DNA of 64,000 nucleotides from a phage, in the sequence record PZ179882.1, one strand, 5' to 3'. The position numbers and the translations under genes were made by a program. Below, in pieces: positions 22,228 through 29,965 of the stretch. The notes under the pieces were generated by a model, which was not told the DNA's origin, did no database searches, and was given only the letters and a program-made list of their open reading frames with translations. Each line of letters starts with the position of its first letter. Within the stretch, counting starts at the first letter, position 1.

Positions 22228-22470
22228 TTATTCCTTAATTCCTAGTACTTGTTTAAAAGTCTCGTCGTAATCAAGACTTTGGCCCGTTTGTTCTTTATGT
22301 TTGTATATAATATCACTTACTTCTGATAGCATATTTTTATATGAACGAGTTAAAGCAGATTTAAGCACGCTGTATCTATCAGGAAATTTACCATGTTCAT
22401 TATAATAAGCTATTGCTAATTCACGGACTGCCTTTTCAGCAGCCTCCATATATTCTTTACGCTTGGTCAT
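22228..22470 (-). CDS. hypothetical protein (nrdC.1 position)
   Basis: 80 aa ORF. Confidence 0.45.
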
Positions 22471-22472
22471 TT

Positions 22473-22862
22473 TTAATCCAAAATATTATTAGGCATTGGT
22501 TGAACACTCACAAGTTCTTTAAAGAACTCAGTAGAGTCAGGCAATTTAACCATTTCCGGAGCATGCTTACTGAATTTATGTTTACATTGACGGCATTTAT
22601 ATTCAAGCTCTGGTTTACGCCAGTTAATCAATTGAACTTGTTCAGTACCGCATTCAGGGCAATTAGGAACGTTTTTAGAAGCTCTTTCACGTCGTTCAAC
22701 CATAGCCATAATAGCATCCCATGCTGGAGGTTTAAAATCTAAATCGTCGCAGCCGTGAATCTTTCCACGCATTTCTAGATCGTCTTCTTCACCAGCCATA
22801 ATAATTTTAATTAAACTGGAATTACTTGAAGCTGCAATGTCTTCTAATAAACGCTTTTTCAT
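22473..22862 (-). CDS. zinc-ribbon protein
   Basis: 129 aa; CPECG ... CRQCKH cysteine pairs. Confidence 0.5.
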
Positions 22863-23788
22863 TTCAATACCTCAATAGCATTACGTAAACCATTTGCTTT
22901 GGCGGTTAAAGCCTTAAGAACTTTAGTATGATCTTCAATCTGTTTTTCAACTTCAATTAAGCGTGTATTAAGATATTCGCGTTCTTCGCTCAGATTATCA
23001 GCCTTTTCTGCTTTAGGTTCTTTTACAACTGGCTTATACGTATTAGGGTTCTTCAATTTAATTAGAATGCGTGAACTGTATAACATTGAACCATTATCTT
23101 CGGTTTCATCATACATTTCCACTACGTCCATCATCTCCACCATCGTGCAGAGTTTATAAGACAACGAACGAATAGTTTTGTTGTGCTTATTAATTTCTCT
23201 AGCTGTCATGGTGCCGAGATTACGTGAGTAATAATAAGGAACCTGGATATTAATTAATACTGATGAACCACCTGGCTTGTGTGTTACTTCATCAGCAATA
23301 ACCCAGTCCTTAACATGAACTGTATTTGTACGGTCATCGCCCGCGGTAAATAGTTTACGAGCATGCTTAAAAAGCATATTCACTTGGTCATTGAATTGAC
23401 AGGCGAATTTATCAGCAAATTTAGTTTCAGGAATGGTAGATAACCAATCAGCCAAATGGGTCTTTTTAACATCGTTAACAATAGTAAATTCAACCAAATC
23501 GGTTATAGATGTCGCAGATTTAATGAAGCTCGGCTTCATAAAGTTTTTAATGTTATCACTAGCTACAGTAGAAGATAACAGACGAGAACGTTTAAACCAT
23601 TGAAGCAAATTGCCTAACGAATGAGAATAAGCGTTTTGAGTATCTTTACAGATATGATTTTCCTGGCCAACATATTGAAGGAAATCACGAAGAATATTAT
23701 TGATTACTGCTCTGTGCCCGATCTGATAATTACGATGTTTAGTAATAAGACTGTCAAAATAATCAATATAATGTTTACGAGTTTTCAT
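22859..23788 (-). CDS. hypothetical protein with C-terminal coiled coil
   Basis: 309 aa; N-terminus MKTRKHYIDYF; C-terminal heptad-like helix. Confidence 0.5.
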   Translation of the reverse strand: MKTRKHYIDYFDSLITKHRNYQIGHRAVINNILRDFLQYVGQENHICKDTQNAYSHSLGNLLQWFKRSRLLSSTVASDNIKNFMKPSFIKSATSITDLVEFTIVNDVKKTHLADWLSTIPETKFADKFACQFNDQVNMLFKHARKLFTAGDDRTNTVHVKDWVIADEVTHKPGGSSVLINIQVPYYYSRNLGTMTAREINKHNKTIRSLSYKLCTMVEMMDVVEMYDETEDNGSMLYSSRILIKLKNPNTYKPVVKEPKAEKADNLSEEREYLNTRLIEVEKQIEDHTKVLKALTAKANGLRNAIEVLK

Positions 23789-23840
23789 GTTCTTCTCACT
23801 TGGTTAATGATTTATACTCCGAGCCATCCTTGGCTTTAAA

Positions 23841-24843
23841 TTACTTAATTAACTGTAAAGCTTGTTCAAGACGATCCAGGCGATTAACAGATTCTTCCCA
23901 AATCCTTTTAGCCTGCTCATATTCTTTCTGCGCTTTATTAGAAATTTCTAGAGCTTCTTTATAAGCTTTTTCTAGTGCAATAACTTCTGGACGAATTTCT
24001 ACCGGTTCAGGCGAATCATCAAGACATTCCATTAGTTCCTCAAGGGTAGTTTCTTCTTTAGGAGTATTCACAATTTCATCACATTTTTGTTGGTAAATTT
24101 CTTTATCAGTCGGTAAATAAGCACATTTCACTTCACGAAGACTAACTACAATTTTATATCCTTCCCAACCGCATATACTCTTAAAAGGATACGTATGAAT
24201 ATTTTCTACTGTTTCCATACAAAGTAATGCAGTCTCTAATTGACGAGTTATATCACTAGCAATTGAGAAAAATTTATTAATGTTCTTTTGATTAGCTTCT
24301 GGCGTAAAAAATCCATAATTCACAAAAATAGCTGCTTTATTTTTATCAAGTTCATATTCTTTTATGATAATCATATCAGAAGCCCAAGGATGAATTTGAC
24401 GATAATCACCATAGCATAATTTAGAAGCTGATTTTAGAATTTGCTTTTTGAAAAGTCTGAAATTACTAATCCAACGACGAGTAAAAATATTCTCAGGGTC
24501 TTCTTTAATATTAAGATGATAAGAATTAACATCACCGAACCAATTATATCCTACTACATCTTTAGTTCGTTTAATTTCTTTCCCAAATTTACCAAGAATA
24601 TCCTGATTAACTAAATATGAAAGAAGACGAGAACCTTTAAAGGTTTCCTTAATATCACTTTTATCTTCGCGACTAGAAATTTTATGAACTTCATGAATAA
24701 ATTTGCTGGAAGAAACAATGCTTACATCAATATTATTGAGCCATTGATTGATAATGGAAATAACGTTATTCTGACTAGACATAGGTTTAACTTTATCATC
24801 AATAACACTATTGAATGATTTGATATATTCGTTACGAGTCATA
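23841..24843 (-). CDS. hypothetical protein with C-terminal coiled coil
   Basis: Start moved to the internal Met (MTRNEYIKSF) because the ORF-track start lies inside the promoter -10 element; GAGGAG ribosome-binding site precedes it. Confidence 0.5.
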
Positions 24844-24871
24844 TTAATCTCCTCAGTAGAAAGTAAGAACA

Positions 24872-24901
24872 TTATACCACATCCTTGTGGTAAAGTAAAC
24901 T
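24872..24901 (-). promoter_or_regulatory. T4-type early promoter
   Basis: Minus strand GTTTAC, spacer, TATAAT. Confidence 0.5.
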
Positions 24902-25922
24902 AGTTCAGTGCATTTAGTGCATTGTTCAGTTTAGAACGTTGCTTCGTGAGATTTTTGACTTTTTCTTGAGCTTTTTCTAGCGTCTTTTCAGCTTCTAGCA
25001 CTTCATTAGTTGCTTTAACGAGTTCATCATCTACTGCCTTGATAGACTTCTCAATCGCATCTGCATGCCATTTTTCAACAGGTTTAAGACTCGGATTTTC
25101 AATAGGAAGAAAATTCACTTTATTGAATTTCCATGCATCTTTATTACCTGAACTATACATCCAAAATTTAGGATCGTTTGATGAGTAATTGGATAAATTT
25201 AAGTTATCTTGCACTTCCTGCTTTTTCTCTTGTGTGACTTCGTCCTTTCTCAAAAAATCGTATTTAAATGAAACGATCATATCAAGTTCATATGTTGTTG
25301 TATGTTCCCAATTTCGCTCAAAATGAGGTAAAATCTTAGACTGAACAGCGGCAACAACATCCATATACTTAAATGCTTCTGTCAACTGTGATTTAAGGCA
25401 TTCACAAATTGAAAGAGAATTTTTTGTATTAGGTTTAAAGCTAATTCGTGCAGTTCTATTATTTTCTTTTAATGGTCTTACTTCCATCTGAAGAGTATAA
25501 CCATCAAATTTCAGGTTCTTTAAGTTAATGTCAGAACCTTTTAATCGACTAGCCGTCGACAAAATTTGCTTTAATTGTCTACGGAACAGAGCAATAAATC
25601 TCCATTCAATACGATAATGATTTGGATTGAAAAATCCAGATGATAAATCGACCTTACTTTGACCAACGCCTTGAACAAATAGAGGATTTTTATAATCAAT
25701 AGTTTTACAGAAATCGGTGAGCAGCTCACGAGCCGTCATTTGTGTAATATACCCTGCTTTACTAAAATTACGCACCCATTCACTGCTATTCGTATACTTA
25801 AAGTGATGAATAACACGATTAACTTTATCAGGGTCTAAATTATTTTCACACAAAAATGTCATAACATCACGAGTATAACTGGCATTACGAACTATATCTT
25901 CAATTTGAGAACGAGTTTTCAT
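24900..25922 (-). CDS. hypothetical protein with C-terminal coiled coil
   Basis: 340 aa; N-terminus MKTRSQIEDIV. Confidence 0.5.
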   Translation of the reverse strand: MKTRSQIEDIVRNASYTRDVMTFLCENNLDPDKVNRVIHHFKYTNSSEWVRNFSKAGYITQMTARELLTDFCKTIDYKNPLFVQGVGQSKVDLSSGFFNPNHYRIEWRFIALFRRQLKQILSTASRLKGSDINLKNLKFDGYTLQMEVRPLKENNRTARISFKPNTKNSLSICECLKSQLTEAFKYMDVVAAVQSKILPHFERNWEHTTTYELDMIVSFKYDFLRKDEVTQEKKQEVQDNLNLSNYSSNDPKFWMYSSGNKDAWKFNKVNFLPIENPSLKPVEKWHADAIEKSIKAVDDELVKATNEVLEAEKTLEKAQEKVKNLTKQRSKLNNALNALN

Positions 25923-25930
25923 GGTATTCC

Positions 25931-26833
25931 TTAAGATTTAAGTAAATCAACAATTTTAATTAACTTTTCACGCTCAGATTTAGCTTTACTACTCAATCCA
26001 GATAGTCTGAAAATTTCATCATCATATTGCTGAATAGAAATATTTAGCTCTTCAATCTGCTTATTAAAATAAGCAATTTGTTCAGAATGTTTTTCATTAC
26101 TGCGAACTGGTACAGGTTTTGTAGGTAATTTAGTTGAACTGGATTCATCTGGGCGATAAATTAAAATGCAATTTGAACCAATCGGACATTTAGCACCAGA
26201 CACATATTCTAATGTTCCGGCTTCTTTTAAAACTTCAAAAGCTAAACAGAGATGATGCCCCATATTAACATAATCTGTAGAGCGAGCTCTGATGTAATAA
26301 TCATCTCCACGAGTACTAAATTTAAAGCATTTAAGGTCTTCTGTATTATTGGTCTTAAAAATCATTTGTTTATCTAGACCTTTAGCTAATCGAGCGCCTA
26401 ATGCTAATAATCGTCGTTGATTTTCCCACAAATCCGCAATCATTTGGTCAAATGATAATTTCGGCATTAGTCGACCATAAAGGTCATATCCTTTATTATA
26501 ATTGCGAAGGATTTCACTCGCATTAATACGAGACAACGCTCCAATTTTATTAAGGGCTTTCATGATGCGATTAGATAAACCCATTCCAGATCCGTTTGTT
26601 CGTTGCAAATGTTTATCTAATCCAAACCCAATATCAACTTTAAATTTATCTAAAATTTCAGCATGAACATCTCTGTCAATAACATTCAAATCCAAAGTTG
26701 GGTTAAATCTATGAAAAAATTTATCTGGCTCTCCACGACGAAGTACAGTCCATTCATTTAATTTTTTATTAACTAAAGATTTAATTACTGCATTGACATT
26801 ATTAATTACTACTGACATATTTTCCTCACTCAA
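25931..26833 (-). CDS. hypothetical protein with C-terminal coiled coil
   Basis: 300 aa. Confidence 0.5.
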   Translation of the reverse strand: MSEENMSVVINNVNAVIKSLVNKKLNEWTVLRRGEPDKFFHRFNPTLDLNVIDRDVHAEILDKFKVDIGFGLDKHLQRTNGSGMGLSNRIMKALNKIGALSRINASEILRNYNKGYDLYGRLMPKLSFDQMIADLWENQRRLLALGARLAKGLDKQMIFKTNNTEDLKCFKFSTRGDDYYIRARSTDYVNMGHHLCLAFEVLKEAGTLEYVSGAKCPIGSNCILIYRPDESSSTKLPTKPVPVRSNEKHSEQIAYFNKQIEELNISIQQYDDEIFRLSGLSSKAKSEREKLIKIVDLLKS

Positions 26834-27234
26834 TTTTCAATTTTACTAAATATACAGAATAAGATGGAACAGACTATATAAGCACCACACACAGATTGAA
26901 CTAATACCATTCCAAAGAACCAAACAATATTATCAAACAATGTCTGTTTTACGTCGAAAGGACGTAAACTTACAGTAATATTATCACCTTTTTCTATTGA
27001 AGAATACATCTCTGGGGAAATATATTCACTAAATCTATAACCGTCTTTGAGTTCATATACGGCAATAAACGATAAACTAGACCCTTTTCCTTGTGTTCCT
27101 GTAATGGTATTAACTACAGTAACATCATAATCTTTATAATGCATATAATCATTAATTGCGTAATAACCATATGCAACTACTATACATAAACAACATATCA
27201 ATAAATTCAATCTTTTAATTATCAACCGTTTCAT
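26830..27234 (-). CDS. membrane protein
   Basis: 134 aa with N- and C-terminal hydrophobic segments. Confidence 0.5.
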   Translation of the reverse strand: MKRLIIKRLNLLICCLCIVVAYGYYAINDYMHYKDYDVTVVNTITGTQGKGSSLSFIAVYELKDGYRFSEYISPEMYSSIEKGDNITVSLRPFDVKQTLFDNIVWFFGMVLVQSVCGAYIVCSILFCIFSKIEN

Positions 27235-27289
27235 AATAATCTCAATTAAAAGGGCTTAGAACCATTATACCATCCTTGGTATAAAGCGG

Positions 27290-27817
27290 TTATGCGAGTA
27301 CCGTCTTTAACCGTTCTTCAAACTTCCGAAGAGTATTTTGGCGTTCAGCTCTTTGCTTTTTGTAAGTTTCAATACGCTCTGAAATGAGAGAGTATCGTTC
27401 ATTTACTGATTCTTTCATAAAATCAGGAATTTCACGAGAAGCTTTAATCTCGTCAAATTTATCAATAACAGCTTGCTCTTCAGCAATTAAGTTATCATAC
27501 ATTAAAATATCTTTCTTGATGAACTCAATATCTTCTTGAGTTACACGAGACATTTTAGATGCTTTATCCTTTTTGTACTGTTCGTTAGTATCACGAGACC
27601 AGTGTAATGTACGATTTTTATTCGTATTCTTGTAAATTTCTACAATACCGATCTCATCAATAATAACGATCCAATTCCAACGGGATTTGTAAATTTGTCC
27701 TCCATCAACAGTGATTTCACCTCCGATTGAGATGTCGTTAAAGAACTTGCTTTGCGCTTCAGATTTAAATTTGCCATCGTTGTAATTTACTAAGTTGAAA
27801 ATATCTTTAGCGTTCAT
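27290..27817 (-). CDS. hypothetical protein
   Basis: 175 aa charged protein directly downstream of an early promoter and GGAGG ribosome-binding site. Confidence 0.5.
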   Translation of the reverse strand: MNAKDIFNLVNYNDGKFKSEAQSKFFNDISIGGEITVDGGQIYKSRWNWIVIIDEIGIVEIYKNTNKNRTLHWSRDTNEQYKKDKASKMSRVTQEDIEFIKKDILMYDNLIAEEQAVIDKFDEIKASREIPDFMKESVNERYSLISERIETYKKQRAERQNTLRKFEERLKTVLA

Positions 27818-28262: not shown

Positions 28263-28982
28263 TTAGGATTCTTCTAAATGTCTTTTCTGAAAAGTTGATA
28301 CCATACTACGATACGGTTCATTTGGATACCCGTGTTTTATAGCTTCCTTTGTAAATTTTCTCCATCCATATTTAGTTTCTTTCCAAAGCTCGAATAATTC
28401 ATCTTCATATTGCCATATAGTTAAATGAGAACGCTTTGCAGCTTTAATTCCATTAATATGCTTTTCTTTTACTACAGGATTACTTAGTTTCTTTTTAATA
28501 ATATTACTAACTTTTCTAACAAAAACTGGGTCCTTATATCGTTGCGAAGTTTTTATTGAAGTGTTTAATTTAGCTTCCGGTGTGGATGTGACCTCTTTCA
28601 TCTTTTTCTTCATATGCTGTATATGATTAGGATTTTTCCATAAATTTATAGAATGCTTTTTGCATTTTATCCTAGTTTCATCTGCAACCTTTCCTCCTTC
28701 ACCTCCGTATGACAGGTTAACACAGTTTTTTCCATATTTCAATTTACCTGCCATGATATATAATATTTCAGCTTGTACCATTTTATCATAATTATCAAAA
28801 ACTTCTAAAACCGTTTTTGTTAATATGTGGTCATTTGACACTTTTACACGTTCTATATAATTTCCACTACCAACATACGAATCATTGATGTTATTAGTTA
28901 TATGTCGACCATAATAGTATTTCTTAATACCTGTCTTTAAATTTAATATTTCAGTTTTATAGATAGTAAAATATTTTTTCAT
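28263..28982 (-). CDS. GIY-YIG family endonuclease (Seg-like, free-standing)
   Basis: 239 aa; N-terminal IYKT...YYYGRH...YVGSGNY GIY-YIG-like module; lysine-rich C-terminal repeats (WKNPNH, YKDPVF, LSNPVV). Confidence 0.6.
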   Translation of the reverse strand: MKKYFTIYKTEILNLKTGIKKYYYGRHITNNINDSYVGSGNYIERVKVSNDHILTKTVLEVFDNYDKMVQAEILYIMAGKLKYGKNCVNLSYGGEGGKVADETRIKCKKHSINLWKNPNHIQHMKKKMKEVTSTPEAKLNTSIKTSQRYKDPVFVRKVSNIIKKKLSNPVVKEKHINGIKAAKRSHLTIWQYEDELFELWKETKYGWRKFTKEAIKHGYPNEPYRSMVSTFQKRHLEES

Positions 28983-29965
28983 TTTAATAATACCGTTTCA
29001 GCAATTTCTTCCCAACCGTTTTTGTCGGTCATAATAAAGTCAGCAAGATAAAGAGCAGTACGCAGTGAAACATTGCGTAAACGATTAACATTAACTTTCA
29101 TCCATGATAATGCTTTATAAGTTTCTTCATCAGAAAGACCGCGCTTTTGCATCATGTCGGTTGAAAGAATAACATCTTCAACCCTGACCATAATTTCTTC
29201 ATTAGTGTGAACACCCAAATCTAAATAAACTGAGCGGGACACTAATGCTTGTAAATGTGGAGCAAGTTTAGTACCACGGTCTAATTCGCGGTCAATATCA
29301 ACGTTTGTGATAAAAACAATCGTTCCTTTAAATTCAAACTCACGCTCAATGCCTTTTTCTTCTAAGTAAGAAGATGCAGTGCTCCAGCAGACTTTACGGG
29401 TCTCTCCAGTGTCCAGAGCAGCTTTTAGAAGATTAAGAATGTCCATATCAGAGAAAACATCCACATCATCAATCAAAAGGACAGAATTCTCTTCACGATT
29501 ATTCCAAAGCTGCTCATAAAGACCAATACCAGAGATTTTACCATTAATGCTTTTATATTCAATGTATCCATTATCATTTGCTTTATTTAAAGCTTTATCT
29601 AAAGAATACGTTTTACCAATACCTGCTGCGCCAGAGATAATTAATGAACGAATATTTCCATTAATAATACCATTCGTCATCATTCCCATAACATTAAATC
29701 TTTTATTAATGCGGGTTTTCATATCTTCATATGATTCTTTAACTTCTTCAACTTTTACACCATCATATGAAATATCTGATTTGTAAACCCAAACACCGCG
29801 ACGTTTACCGTCAATTTCAACAAAAACTTTACCATCTCCTTGTGCATCTACCGGAGCATTATCTGGGAACCATTCGCCTAAGAGCTCAAAAGTTCCAGAG
29901 ATTTCTTTACCGAAGTAGATACCCTTATTGATAGTTACAGTTTTCATTTTATTCTCCAATTTCAC
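28979..29965 (-). CDS. P-loop NTPase
   Basis: 328 aa; Walker A ISGAAGIGKT and Walker B-like VLLIDDVD. Confidence 0.55.
   Translation of the reverse strand: MKLENKMKTVTINKGIYFGKEISGTFELLGEWFPDNAPVDAQGDGKVFVEIDGKRRGVWVYKSDISYDGVKVEEVKESYEDMKTRINKRFNVMGMMTNGIINGNIRSLIISGAAGIGKTYSLDKALNKANDNGYIEYKSINGKISGIGLYEQLWNNREENSVLLIDDVDVFSDMDILNLLKAALDTGETRKVCWSTASSYLEEKGIEREFEFKGTIVFITNVDIDRELDRGTKLAPHLQALVSRSVYLDLGVHTNEEIMVRVEDVILSTDMMQKRGLSDEETYKALSWMKVNVNRLRNVSLRTALYLADFIMTDKNGWEEIAETVLLK

Follow-up and report, generated by a model that had tools for sequence, protein, structure and literature searches.

nrdC.3 to nrdC.6 of a T4-like phage: tandem genes of a probable paralog family with C-terminal heptad helices and candidate anti-defence roles

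The DNA analysed here is a 64,000-nucleotide stretch of sequence record PZ179882.1 (referred to as the window), which belongs to a Tequatrovirus (T4-like) genome; positions 22400-27300 align over their full length at 97% identity with many T4-like phages of Escherichia, Shigella and Yersinia. Our subject is a group of four genes, nrdC.3, nrdC.4, nrdC.5 and nrdC.6, which lie in surroundings that include nrdD, endonuclease VII, pin and nrdC. Their names were taken from the annotated genes of other records that underlie tblastn matches; nrdC.4 is annotated as such in phages AR1, RB14 and KMB42, and nrdC.5 in T2. An initial annotation had described four consecutive genes here, each ending in a coiled-coil segment, and had suggested a tandem family in which variable N-terminal domains are carried on a shared oligomerisation tail. 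The four consecutive minus-strand open reading frames (ORFs) are indeed present (Table 1) and encode proteins of 309, 333, 340 and 295 amino acids, in agreement with the annotated gene lengths of T4 (HIDEN-SEQ supplement). The nrdC.5 of the window is approximately 95% identical to a T4 record.

Two of the gene boundaries originally assigned, 22859-23788 and 24900-25922, were retained, whereas the other two were revised. The interval 23841-24843 is wrong for nrdC.4 because it spans 1003 nucleotides, which is no multiple of 3, and the gene occupies 23841-24842. The interval 25931-26833 extends to an in-frame TTG at 26833, but the ATG at 26818 is the most likely start of nrdC.6, in agreement with the T4 gene lengths in the HIDEN-SEQ supplement. 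A longer mechanical ORF for nrdC.4, reaching up to an ATG at 24872, begins inside the −10 box of a promoter-like site of T4 early type that lies between nrdC.5 and nrdC.4. This site agrees with 10 of 12 consensus positions and has an extended −10 TG; the match is to the consensus only, and sites of this kind showed no enrichment in the region (25 found versus 28.6 expected). Some records annotate a 343-amino-acid nrdC.4 as a result of the spurious ATG in the −10 box, and a 7-bp hairpin (24892-24875) falls within the spacer of the site. The MKTR starts noted for two of the genes were confirmed for nrdC.3 and nrdC.5. The nrdC.4 protein begins with MTRNEY, and residues T2, R3, Y6 and I7 are invariant across the nrdC.3/4 alignment.

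Table 1. Coordinates of nrdC.3 to nrdC.6, their C-terminal helices and a promoter-like site in the window (a/d, hydrophobic residues at heptad positions a and d in one register; shuffles, number reaching the observed phasing)
Feature	Coordinates	Strand	Details
nrdC.3	22859..23788	-	309 aa; ORF; phrog_1435 E 3.5e-115; tblastn match annotated nrdC.3 in phage ime09
nrdC.3 heptad helix, aa 264-309	22862..22999	-	a/d 11/13; 24/20,000 shuffles
nrdC.4	23841..24842	-	333 aa; start MTRNEY after GAGGAG; phrog_1435 E 6.4e-165
nrdC.4 heptad helix, aa 285-333	23844..23990	-	AlphaFold2 helix 285-332; a/d 12/14; 16/20,000 shuffles
T4-early-type promoter-like site between nrdC.5 and nrdC.4	24871..24899	-	GTTTAC, 17-nt spacer, TG-n-TATAAT
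nrdC.5	24900..25922	-	340 aa; DUF7235/PF23882; ortholog of T4 anti-Dsr1 gene
nrdC.5 heptad helix, aa 283-340	24903..25076	-	a/d 15/17; 0/20,000 shuffles
nrdC.6	25931..26818	-	295 aa from ATG, GAGG upstream; phrog_2257 E 3.6e-152; probable distant paralog
nrdC.6 C-terminal helices, aa 242-295	25934..26095	-	AlphaFold2 helices 242-271, 277-294; a/d 12/15; 28/20,000 shuffles

Relationships among the four proteins were assessed by BLASTP, by searches with hidden Markov models (HMMs) and by profile-profile comparison with hhalign. The all-against-all BLASTP alignment, a check proposed with the initial annotation, upheld one pair, nrdC.3 and nrdC.4 (E 4e-6 within the window, and E 5e-11 for nrdC.3 against nrdC.4 of Dhakavirus C6), and left every other pair non-significant. 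The nrdC.4-family HMM matched nrdC.3 at E 3e-19, and hhalign paired nrdC.3 with the nrdC.4 family (97.7%, E 2e-12). The nrdC.4 and nrdC.5 families were aligned (91.6%, E 8e-7) over 249 collinear columns (63-326 versus 48-326), including a stretch where 'RWISNFRLFKKQILKSASKL' stands opposite 'RFIALFRRQLKQILSTASRL' (FxxxxKQILxSAS+L) and a helix of the small alpha/beta domain. When the nrdC.5 HMM was run against 350 ORF segments of the window, its best non-self matches were nrdC.4 (E 2.8e-4) and nrdC.3 (E 0.016). The families are also linked by the metagenomic sequence P0233, which adjoins an nrdC.2 homolog and whose body resembles the nrdC.3/4 profile (E 2.9e-5, 1.84e9 proteins) while its tail resembles nrdC.5 (E 1e-8). 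Collinear profile-profile similarity outside the tail, by which we delimit the superfamily, was found for nrdC.3, nrdC.4 and nrdC.5; judged by their sequence profiles, these three are paralogs along the whole length and not in the tail only. A scan of all window ORFs for more paralogs found none.

The fourth gene, nrdC.6, probably represents a more distant member of the nrdC.3-6 superfamily. Its family aligned with a merged nrdC.3/4/5 profile both locally (69.6%, E 4.2e-5) and globally (86.4%, E 5.3e-7). In AlphaFold2 models of nrdC.6 and nrdC.4, the predicted elements follow one another in matching order: two helices (residues 123-144 in nrdC.6 and 119-142 in nrdC.4), a strand-strand unit (165-178 and 158-174), a helix (186-199 and 185-208), another strand-strand unit (204-221 and 212-235), a disordered linker and the tail helix. 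Foldseek searches against BFVD matched the nrdC.4 model to NrdC.6 of phage JS10 (E 2.1e-5, probability 1.0, template modelling [TM] score 0.43-0.50), and the nrdC.4 and nrdC.6 models had five other targets in common, all of 300-335 amino acids and from T4-like phages of Acinetobacter, Klebsiella, Pectobacterium and Enterobacter.

The suggestion of a tandem paralog family, each member of which bears a C-terminal heptad helix, is thus sustained, with nrdC.6 as a probable member. The further suggestion of variable N-terminal domains on a shared tail is not, as nrdC.3/nrdC.4 and nrdC.4/nrdC.5 are collinear from near the N-terminus and nrdC.6 has the same order of elements. It is the tail that lacks demonstrable similarity between paralogs: in leave-one-family-out HMMs built from the last 42 residues, the omitted tail was never significantly recovered (best E 0.31). 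These results partly support the earlier model, in that heads and tails would both derive from one ancestor, the heads being still recognisably related and the tails paralog-specific yet strongly constrained.

The C-terminal helix itself was confirmed in all four proteins, each of which ends in an amphipathic helix of 46-58 residues with a single unbroken register. The term coiled coil is used here for such a heptad-phased amphipathic helix, and the score applied is a crude 28-residue one and not an established predictor. With this score, the coiled-coil check proposed earlier came out in favour of the tails: the four proteins rank 1, 5, 6 and 7 among the 68 window ORFs of at least 100 amino acids, the peak lies at the extreme C-terminus in four of four, and nrdC.5 scores highest of the 68. 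Rank 2 is taken by a 546-amino-acid ORF, presumably an SbcC-like gp46. Hydrophobic residues at positions a and d are listed in Table 1; at the remaining positions they number 7 of 33 in nrdC.3, 9 of 35 in nrdC.4, 7 of 41 in nrdC.5 and 8 of 39 in nrdC.6. For each segment the phasing was compared with 20,000 composition-preserving within-segment shuffles, taking the best of seven registers each time. Every one of the four tails comprises at least four heptads.

AlphaFold2 monomer models of nrdC.4 (predicted local distance difference test [pLDDT] 82.9) and nrdC.6 (pLDDT 78.2) show the tail helix preceded by a low-confidence linker. Inside each orthologous group, few parts are as conserved as the tail. 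In nrdC.4 the stretch with the highest conservation in the family lies in this tail, and the entropy over the last ~25 residues is 0.36-0.45 bits; the nrdC.6 tail has a conserved break at RLSGL, and F270, L272, K280, E282, R283, L292, L293 and K294 are invariant in its family. By eye, the ends of the four tails loosely follow the pattern L-x-x-[AI]-[ILV]-x-x-[LI]-[KN]. From these features of the sequence we infer that the proteins may oligomerise through their tails.

Each of the four genes falls in one of the families Pfam PF26897, PF23882 and PF26899 or PHROGs 1435, 2351 and 2257, which the databases hold as three separate families of unknown function and which are joined here as one superfamily with a common architecture. 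The matches of nrdC.3 and nrdC.4 to phrog_1435 are full length, and their assignment to PF26897 (Phage_T4_Y04OP) comes via precomputed matches on close homologs. The match of nrdC.5 to PF23882 (DUF7235) covers model positions 1-307 of 307 (429.3 bits with a cut-off of 30, E 1.2e-128), and nrdC.6, in addition to phrog_2257, is connected to PF26899 by 105 of 105 homologs, several of which are named NrdC.6. Measured against the 30-bit gathering score of DUF7235, nrdC.3 reached 14.3 bits (E 0.028, C-terminal half), and nrdC.4 and nrdC.6 gave no match; nrdC.3, nrdC.4 and nrdC.6 are superfamily-level relatives of DUF7235 that stand outside that Pfam family. Apart from DUF7235, searches of Pfam, NCBIfam and PADLOC returned nothing above threshold for the four proteins; NCBIfam gave sub-threshold matches only (the XerD N-terminus for nrdC.3 and coiled-coil-type models for nrdC.5), and sequence searches of the PDB gave none. 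An exhaustive search with the nrdC.3/4 profile found 10 representative clusters among 1.84 billion proteins, and word-indexed searches with nrdC.5 returned relatives at no less than 81% identity. The nrdC.3/4 family is a very narrow one at the level of sequence, and searches of HMMs against sequences lack the power to connect the paralogs.

In many GenBank records, nrdC.1 to nrdC.8 carry the label 'thioredoxin (x8)', which has spread from the name of the neighbouring nrdC gene. For nrdC.3-6 this label was rejected: no thioredoxin or glutaredoxin family was found in Pfam or NCBIfam, and CxxC occurs in none of the four sequences.

The distribution of the genes was surveyed with tblastn among 50,697 phage records, where nrdC.3 was found in 654, nrdC.4 in 554, nrdC.5 in 582 and nrdC.6 in 742, essentially all of the matches being T4-like phages of enterobacteria. 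Presence/absence mapping across T4-like genomes, also proposed at the outset, showed that copy number in Straboviridae varies from one to four, always just downstream of nrdC. Tequatrovirus carries nrdC.3, 4, 5 and 6; Mosigvirus JS09 carries nrdC.3, 5 and 6; Gaprivervirus VR25 and Dhakavirus C6 carry nrdC.4, 5 and 6; and the metagenomic contig of P0233 has one family member. Acinetobacter phage Acj61 possesses two tandem genes of 330 and 304 amino acids just beyond nrdC, both with heptad-like tails, which correspond by length and order to the BFVD structural matches E5E4A1 and E5E4A2. The hhalign link fails for these two proteins, p120 and p121 (E 0.002-0.2), and predicted structure alone connects them to the family.

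Rearrangement is frequent, and both fused and decayed copies were observed. An in-frame fusion, nrdC.6(1-268)::nrdC.4(256-333), occurs in Salmonella phage Manna at a microhomology of ~10 nucleotides, P0056 is an nrdC.5::nrdC.3 fusion, and ACG-C40 and Pinarejo retain out-of-frame remnants. Among Tequatrovirus-like records, the alleles of nrdC.3 fall into two classes, one of 362 records with at least 80% identity (at least 90% in 352 of these) and one of 291 records at 60-80%; nrdC.3 is more bimodal than the other three genes, which suggests allele replacement by recombination. In T4, transposon insertions are tolerated in all four genes, which are non-essential (HIDEN-SEQ supplement), and nrdC.1-6 can be deleted. 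The variation in copy number, the fusions and remnants and the dispensability are in keeping with accessory genes engaged in an arms race.

The function of the four genes had been described as unknown, a statement now outdated for one of them. T4 nrdC.5 is an early gene that overcomes Dsr1, a SIR2-domain defence of E. coli ECOR17, and plasmid-borne T4 nrdC.5 alone restores plating of a multi-gene deletion mutant on E. coli with dsr1 (Srikant, Guegler and Laub 2022, PMC9391042). The gene at 24900-25922 is the ortholog of T4 nrdC.5, with the same position and length, whereas nrdC.3, nrdC.4 and probably nrdC.6 are paralogs, 12-25% identical to it, that may have other targets or none. Within nrdC.3-6 a demonstrated phenotype belongs to NrdC.5 only; because this paralog defeats Dsr1, nrdC.3, nrdC.4 and nrdC.6 become candidate anti-defence genes. 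Two neighbours have been assigned such activities, as gp49.2 counters OLD (PMC13096335) and nrdC.1 counters Septu (bioRxiv 10.1101/2025.11.20.689424). The early-type promoter-like site inside the array (Table 1) is in line with such a role. In the searched literature, no paper was found on the mechanism of NrdC.5 or on any role of nrdC.3, nrdC.4 or nrdC.6. A functional analogue is provided by DSAD1 of an SPbeta-type phage, which reportedly counteracts or represses the defence-associated sirtuin DSR2, whose activator is a phage tail tube protein (PMC10981675, PMC11087589, PMC10973363). DSAD1 has no detectable relationship to these proteins in sequence or fold, and it serves here as a model for the proposed binding mechanism.

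Taking these data together, we consider it reasonably likely that nrdC.3-6, early accessory genes of T4 type, arose from one ancestral gene by tandem duplication and divergence and encode early-expressed, oligomerising defence inhibitors. From the N-terminus, each protein would comprise a helical part, a conserved pair of helices, a small domain of beta-beta-alpha-beta-beta type, a disordered linker and, at the C-terminus, a heptad helix of 46-58 residues. The proteins would be produced early in infection, and the C-terminal coiled coil would drive paralog-specific self-association. The resulting multivalent oligomer may then bind host abortive-infection or defence proteins and hold them inactive; on the model of DSAD1 and DSR2, NrdC.5 would block the SIR2-type NADase Dsr1 in this way. 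The bodies of the paralogs, mainly the N-terminal helices and the beta domain, would have diverged toward other targets or target variants.

Several observations weigh against this interpretation. The link to nrdC.6 consists of profile-profile and predicted-structure matches with modest TM scores, and an nrdC.6 HMM found no paralog among the window ORF segments. The exhaustive nrdC.3/4-profile search did not reach the nrdC.5 and nrdC.6 families in 1.84 billion representatives except through the bridging P0233. Since the tails have no significant similarity between paralogs, as the leave-one-family-out HMMs indicate, a common tail function is an assumption. Both oligomerisation and the binding of NrdC.5 to Dsr1 are steps that we infer, and a phenotype for nrdC.3, nrdC.4 or nrdC.6 was not found in the searched literature. 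The nrdC.5 of the window is not 100% identical to that of T4, so its anti-Dsr1 activity is presumed.

Other explanations were weighed against the same evidence. It is somewhat unlikely, in our judgement, that the proteins have a different early role, such as the binding of host or phage nucleic acid, of the transcription machinery or of metabolic complexes, and that the effect of nrdC.5 on Dsr1 is indirect, the trigger being removed or masked or metabolism being changed in place of a stoichiometric inhibition of Dsr1. Pfam, NCBIfam and PADLOC gave no significant DNA-binding, enzymatic or nucleotide-metabolism domains, nrdC.3-6 are dispensable and freely lost or fused, as expected for host-specific accessory genes, and the adjacent genes are direct anti-defence factors. 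A more elaborate proposal is that the array consists of diversifying oligomeric decoy inhibitors, each acting on a different abortive-infection sensor, with SIR2-type NADases as one class. The tail would here set an oligomeric state matching that of oligomeric effectors, and the beta-beta-alpha-beta-beta core would mimic a virion component of tail-terminator-like fold to which such sensors respond, and would occupy the sensor without activating it. The phage tail-terminator or tail-completion fold (lambda gpU, T5 p142, GTA, SaPI1 and others) is among the closest known systems; we regard the decoy proposal as unlikely.

The arrangement of the locus could also be read as that of one complex, since the four genes lie side by side in one orientation and are probably transcribed together in part or in whole, and all four tails are of heptad type, similar in length and alike in their terminal pattern; the tails would then co-assemble into a hetero-oligomer with a single function. 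This is quite unlikely in view of the rescue of a multi-gene deletion phage by plasmid-borne nrdC.5 alone, the occurrence of any of one, two, three or four members in related phages, and the loss or fusion of single members in otherwise intact phages. Moreover, the tails differ strongly between paralogs and are conserved within each, which fits self-specific pairing better. Finally, the four could be unrelated proteins whose charged helix ends reflect chance or composition, the genome being AT-rich and the termini rich in Lys and Glu. The non-significant BLASTP results for all pairs but nrdC.3/nrdC.4 and the failure of the leave-one-family-out tail HMMs are in keeping with this, but it is highly improbable overall, and for nrdC.3, nrdC.4 and nrdC.5 it is largely refuted: outside the tails the profile-profile matches run collinearly for 120-250 columns, the bridging sequence P0233 exists, the predicted structures have a common topology and common Foldseek targets, and heptad phasing exceeds that of composition-preserving shuffles.

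The genes on either side of nrdC.3-6 also showed features of note. The zinc-ribbon gene nrdC.2 (22473-22862, minus strand), which overlaps the stop codon of nrdC.3 by 4 nucleotides, encodes 129 amino acids here and in JK08, 100-113 in Manna, VR25, C6 and ACG-C40, and 104 in T4 by the coordinates of the HIDEN-SEQ supplement; its extra ~25 C-terminal residues weakly match phrog_21284 'hydrolase' (E 1.3e-4). On the other side, nrdC.6 is adjoined by nrdC.7 (26830-27234), a membrane-like protein of 134 amino acids. Gaprivervirus and Dhakavirus phages instead carry a hydrophobic, membrane-like ORF of 67-71 amino acids, located between nrdC.6 and nrdC.5 (L002 3844-4059, L003 3857-4060), and similar small hydrophobic ORFs lie upstream of the single member on the P0233 contig (L005 858-1091, 1534-1716). 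The product of nrdC.8 (27290-27817, minus strand, 175 amino acids) has a charged, heptad-like helix, ISERIETYKKQRAERQNTLRKFEERLKT, that stops 3 residues short of its C-terminus, and ranks third of 68 in coiled-coil score, but hhalign detected no profile similarity between it and the nrdC.3-6 family (E 0.027).

Further along the minus strand, a 239-amino-acid ORF between nrdC.9 and nrdC.10 (28263-28982) matches phrog_314 'homing endonuclease' at E 1.8e-30 and has no Pfam match; it is absent at this position in JK08, Manna and ACG-C40 and so looks like a mobile insertion. The adjoining nrdC.10 (28979-29965, minus strand, 328 amino acids) gave sub-threshold P-loop matches to nSTAND3, AAA_16 and AAA_14 (E ~1e-4) and is possibly a nucleoside triphosphatase in the same accessory block. 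In Acj61 (L006 6229-8938), genes for nicotinamide phosphoribosyltransferase and ribose-phosphate pyrophosphokinase stand side by side in the genome that also carries the two nrdC.4/6-like tandem genes; this gene pair resembles published nicotinamide adenine dinucleotide (NAD+) reconstitution pathways of counter-defence.

As to what was known before, nrdC.3-6 are long-annotated ORFs of T4, the nrdC.5 phenotype is published, and nrdC.3 and nrdC.4 are grouped together by both PHROGs and Pfam. What appears to be new is that three database families are united in a single superfamily of common architecture, that the coiled-coil tail emerges as a conserved module, that copy number changes dynamically at one fixed position among Straboviridae, and that nrdC.3, nrdC.4 and nrdC.6 are put forward as candidates for anti-defence roles. 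The widespread mis-annotation of nrdC.3-6 as 'thioredoxin' is corrected in the process. Few phage factors that act against a defence-associated sirtuin are known, NrdC.5 being one of them, and if it belongs to a set of four tandem paralogs with a common architecture, present in one to four copies at this locus in Straboviridae, three further T4 genes become specific anti-defence candidates. The same reading, if true, would offer a domain hypothesis in which the conserved coiled-coil tail serves oligomerisation and the variable body serves target choice. Overall, the locus with gp49.2, nrdC.1 and nrdC.5 would then look like an island of anti-defence genes, open to mining in hundreds of sequenced T4-like phages, therapy candidates included.

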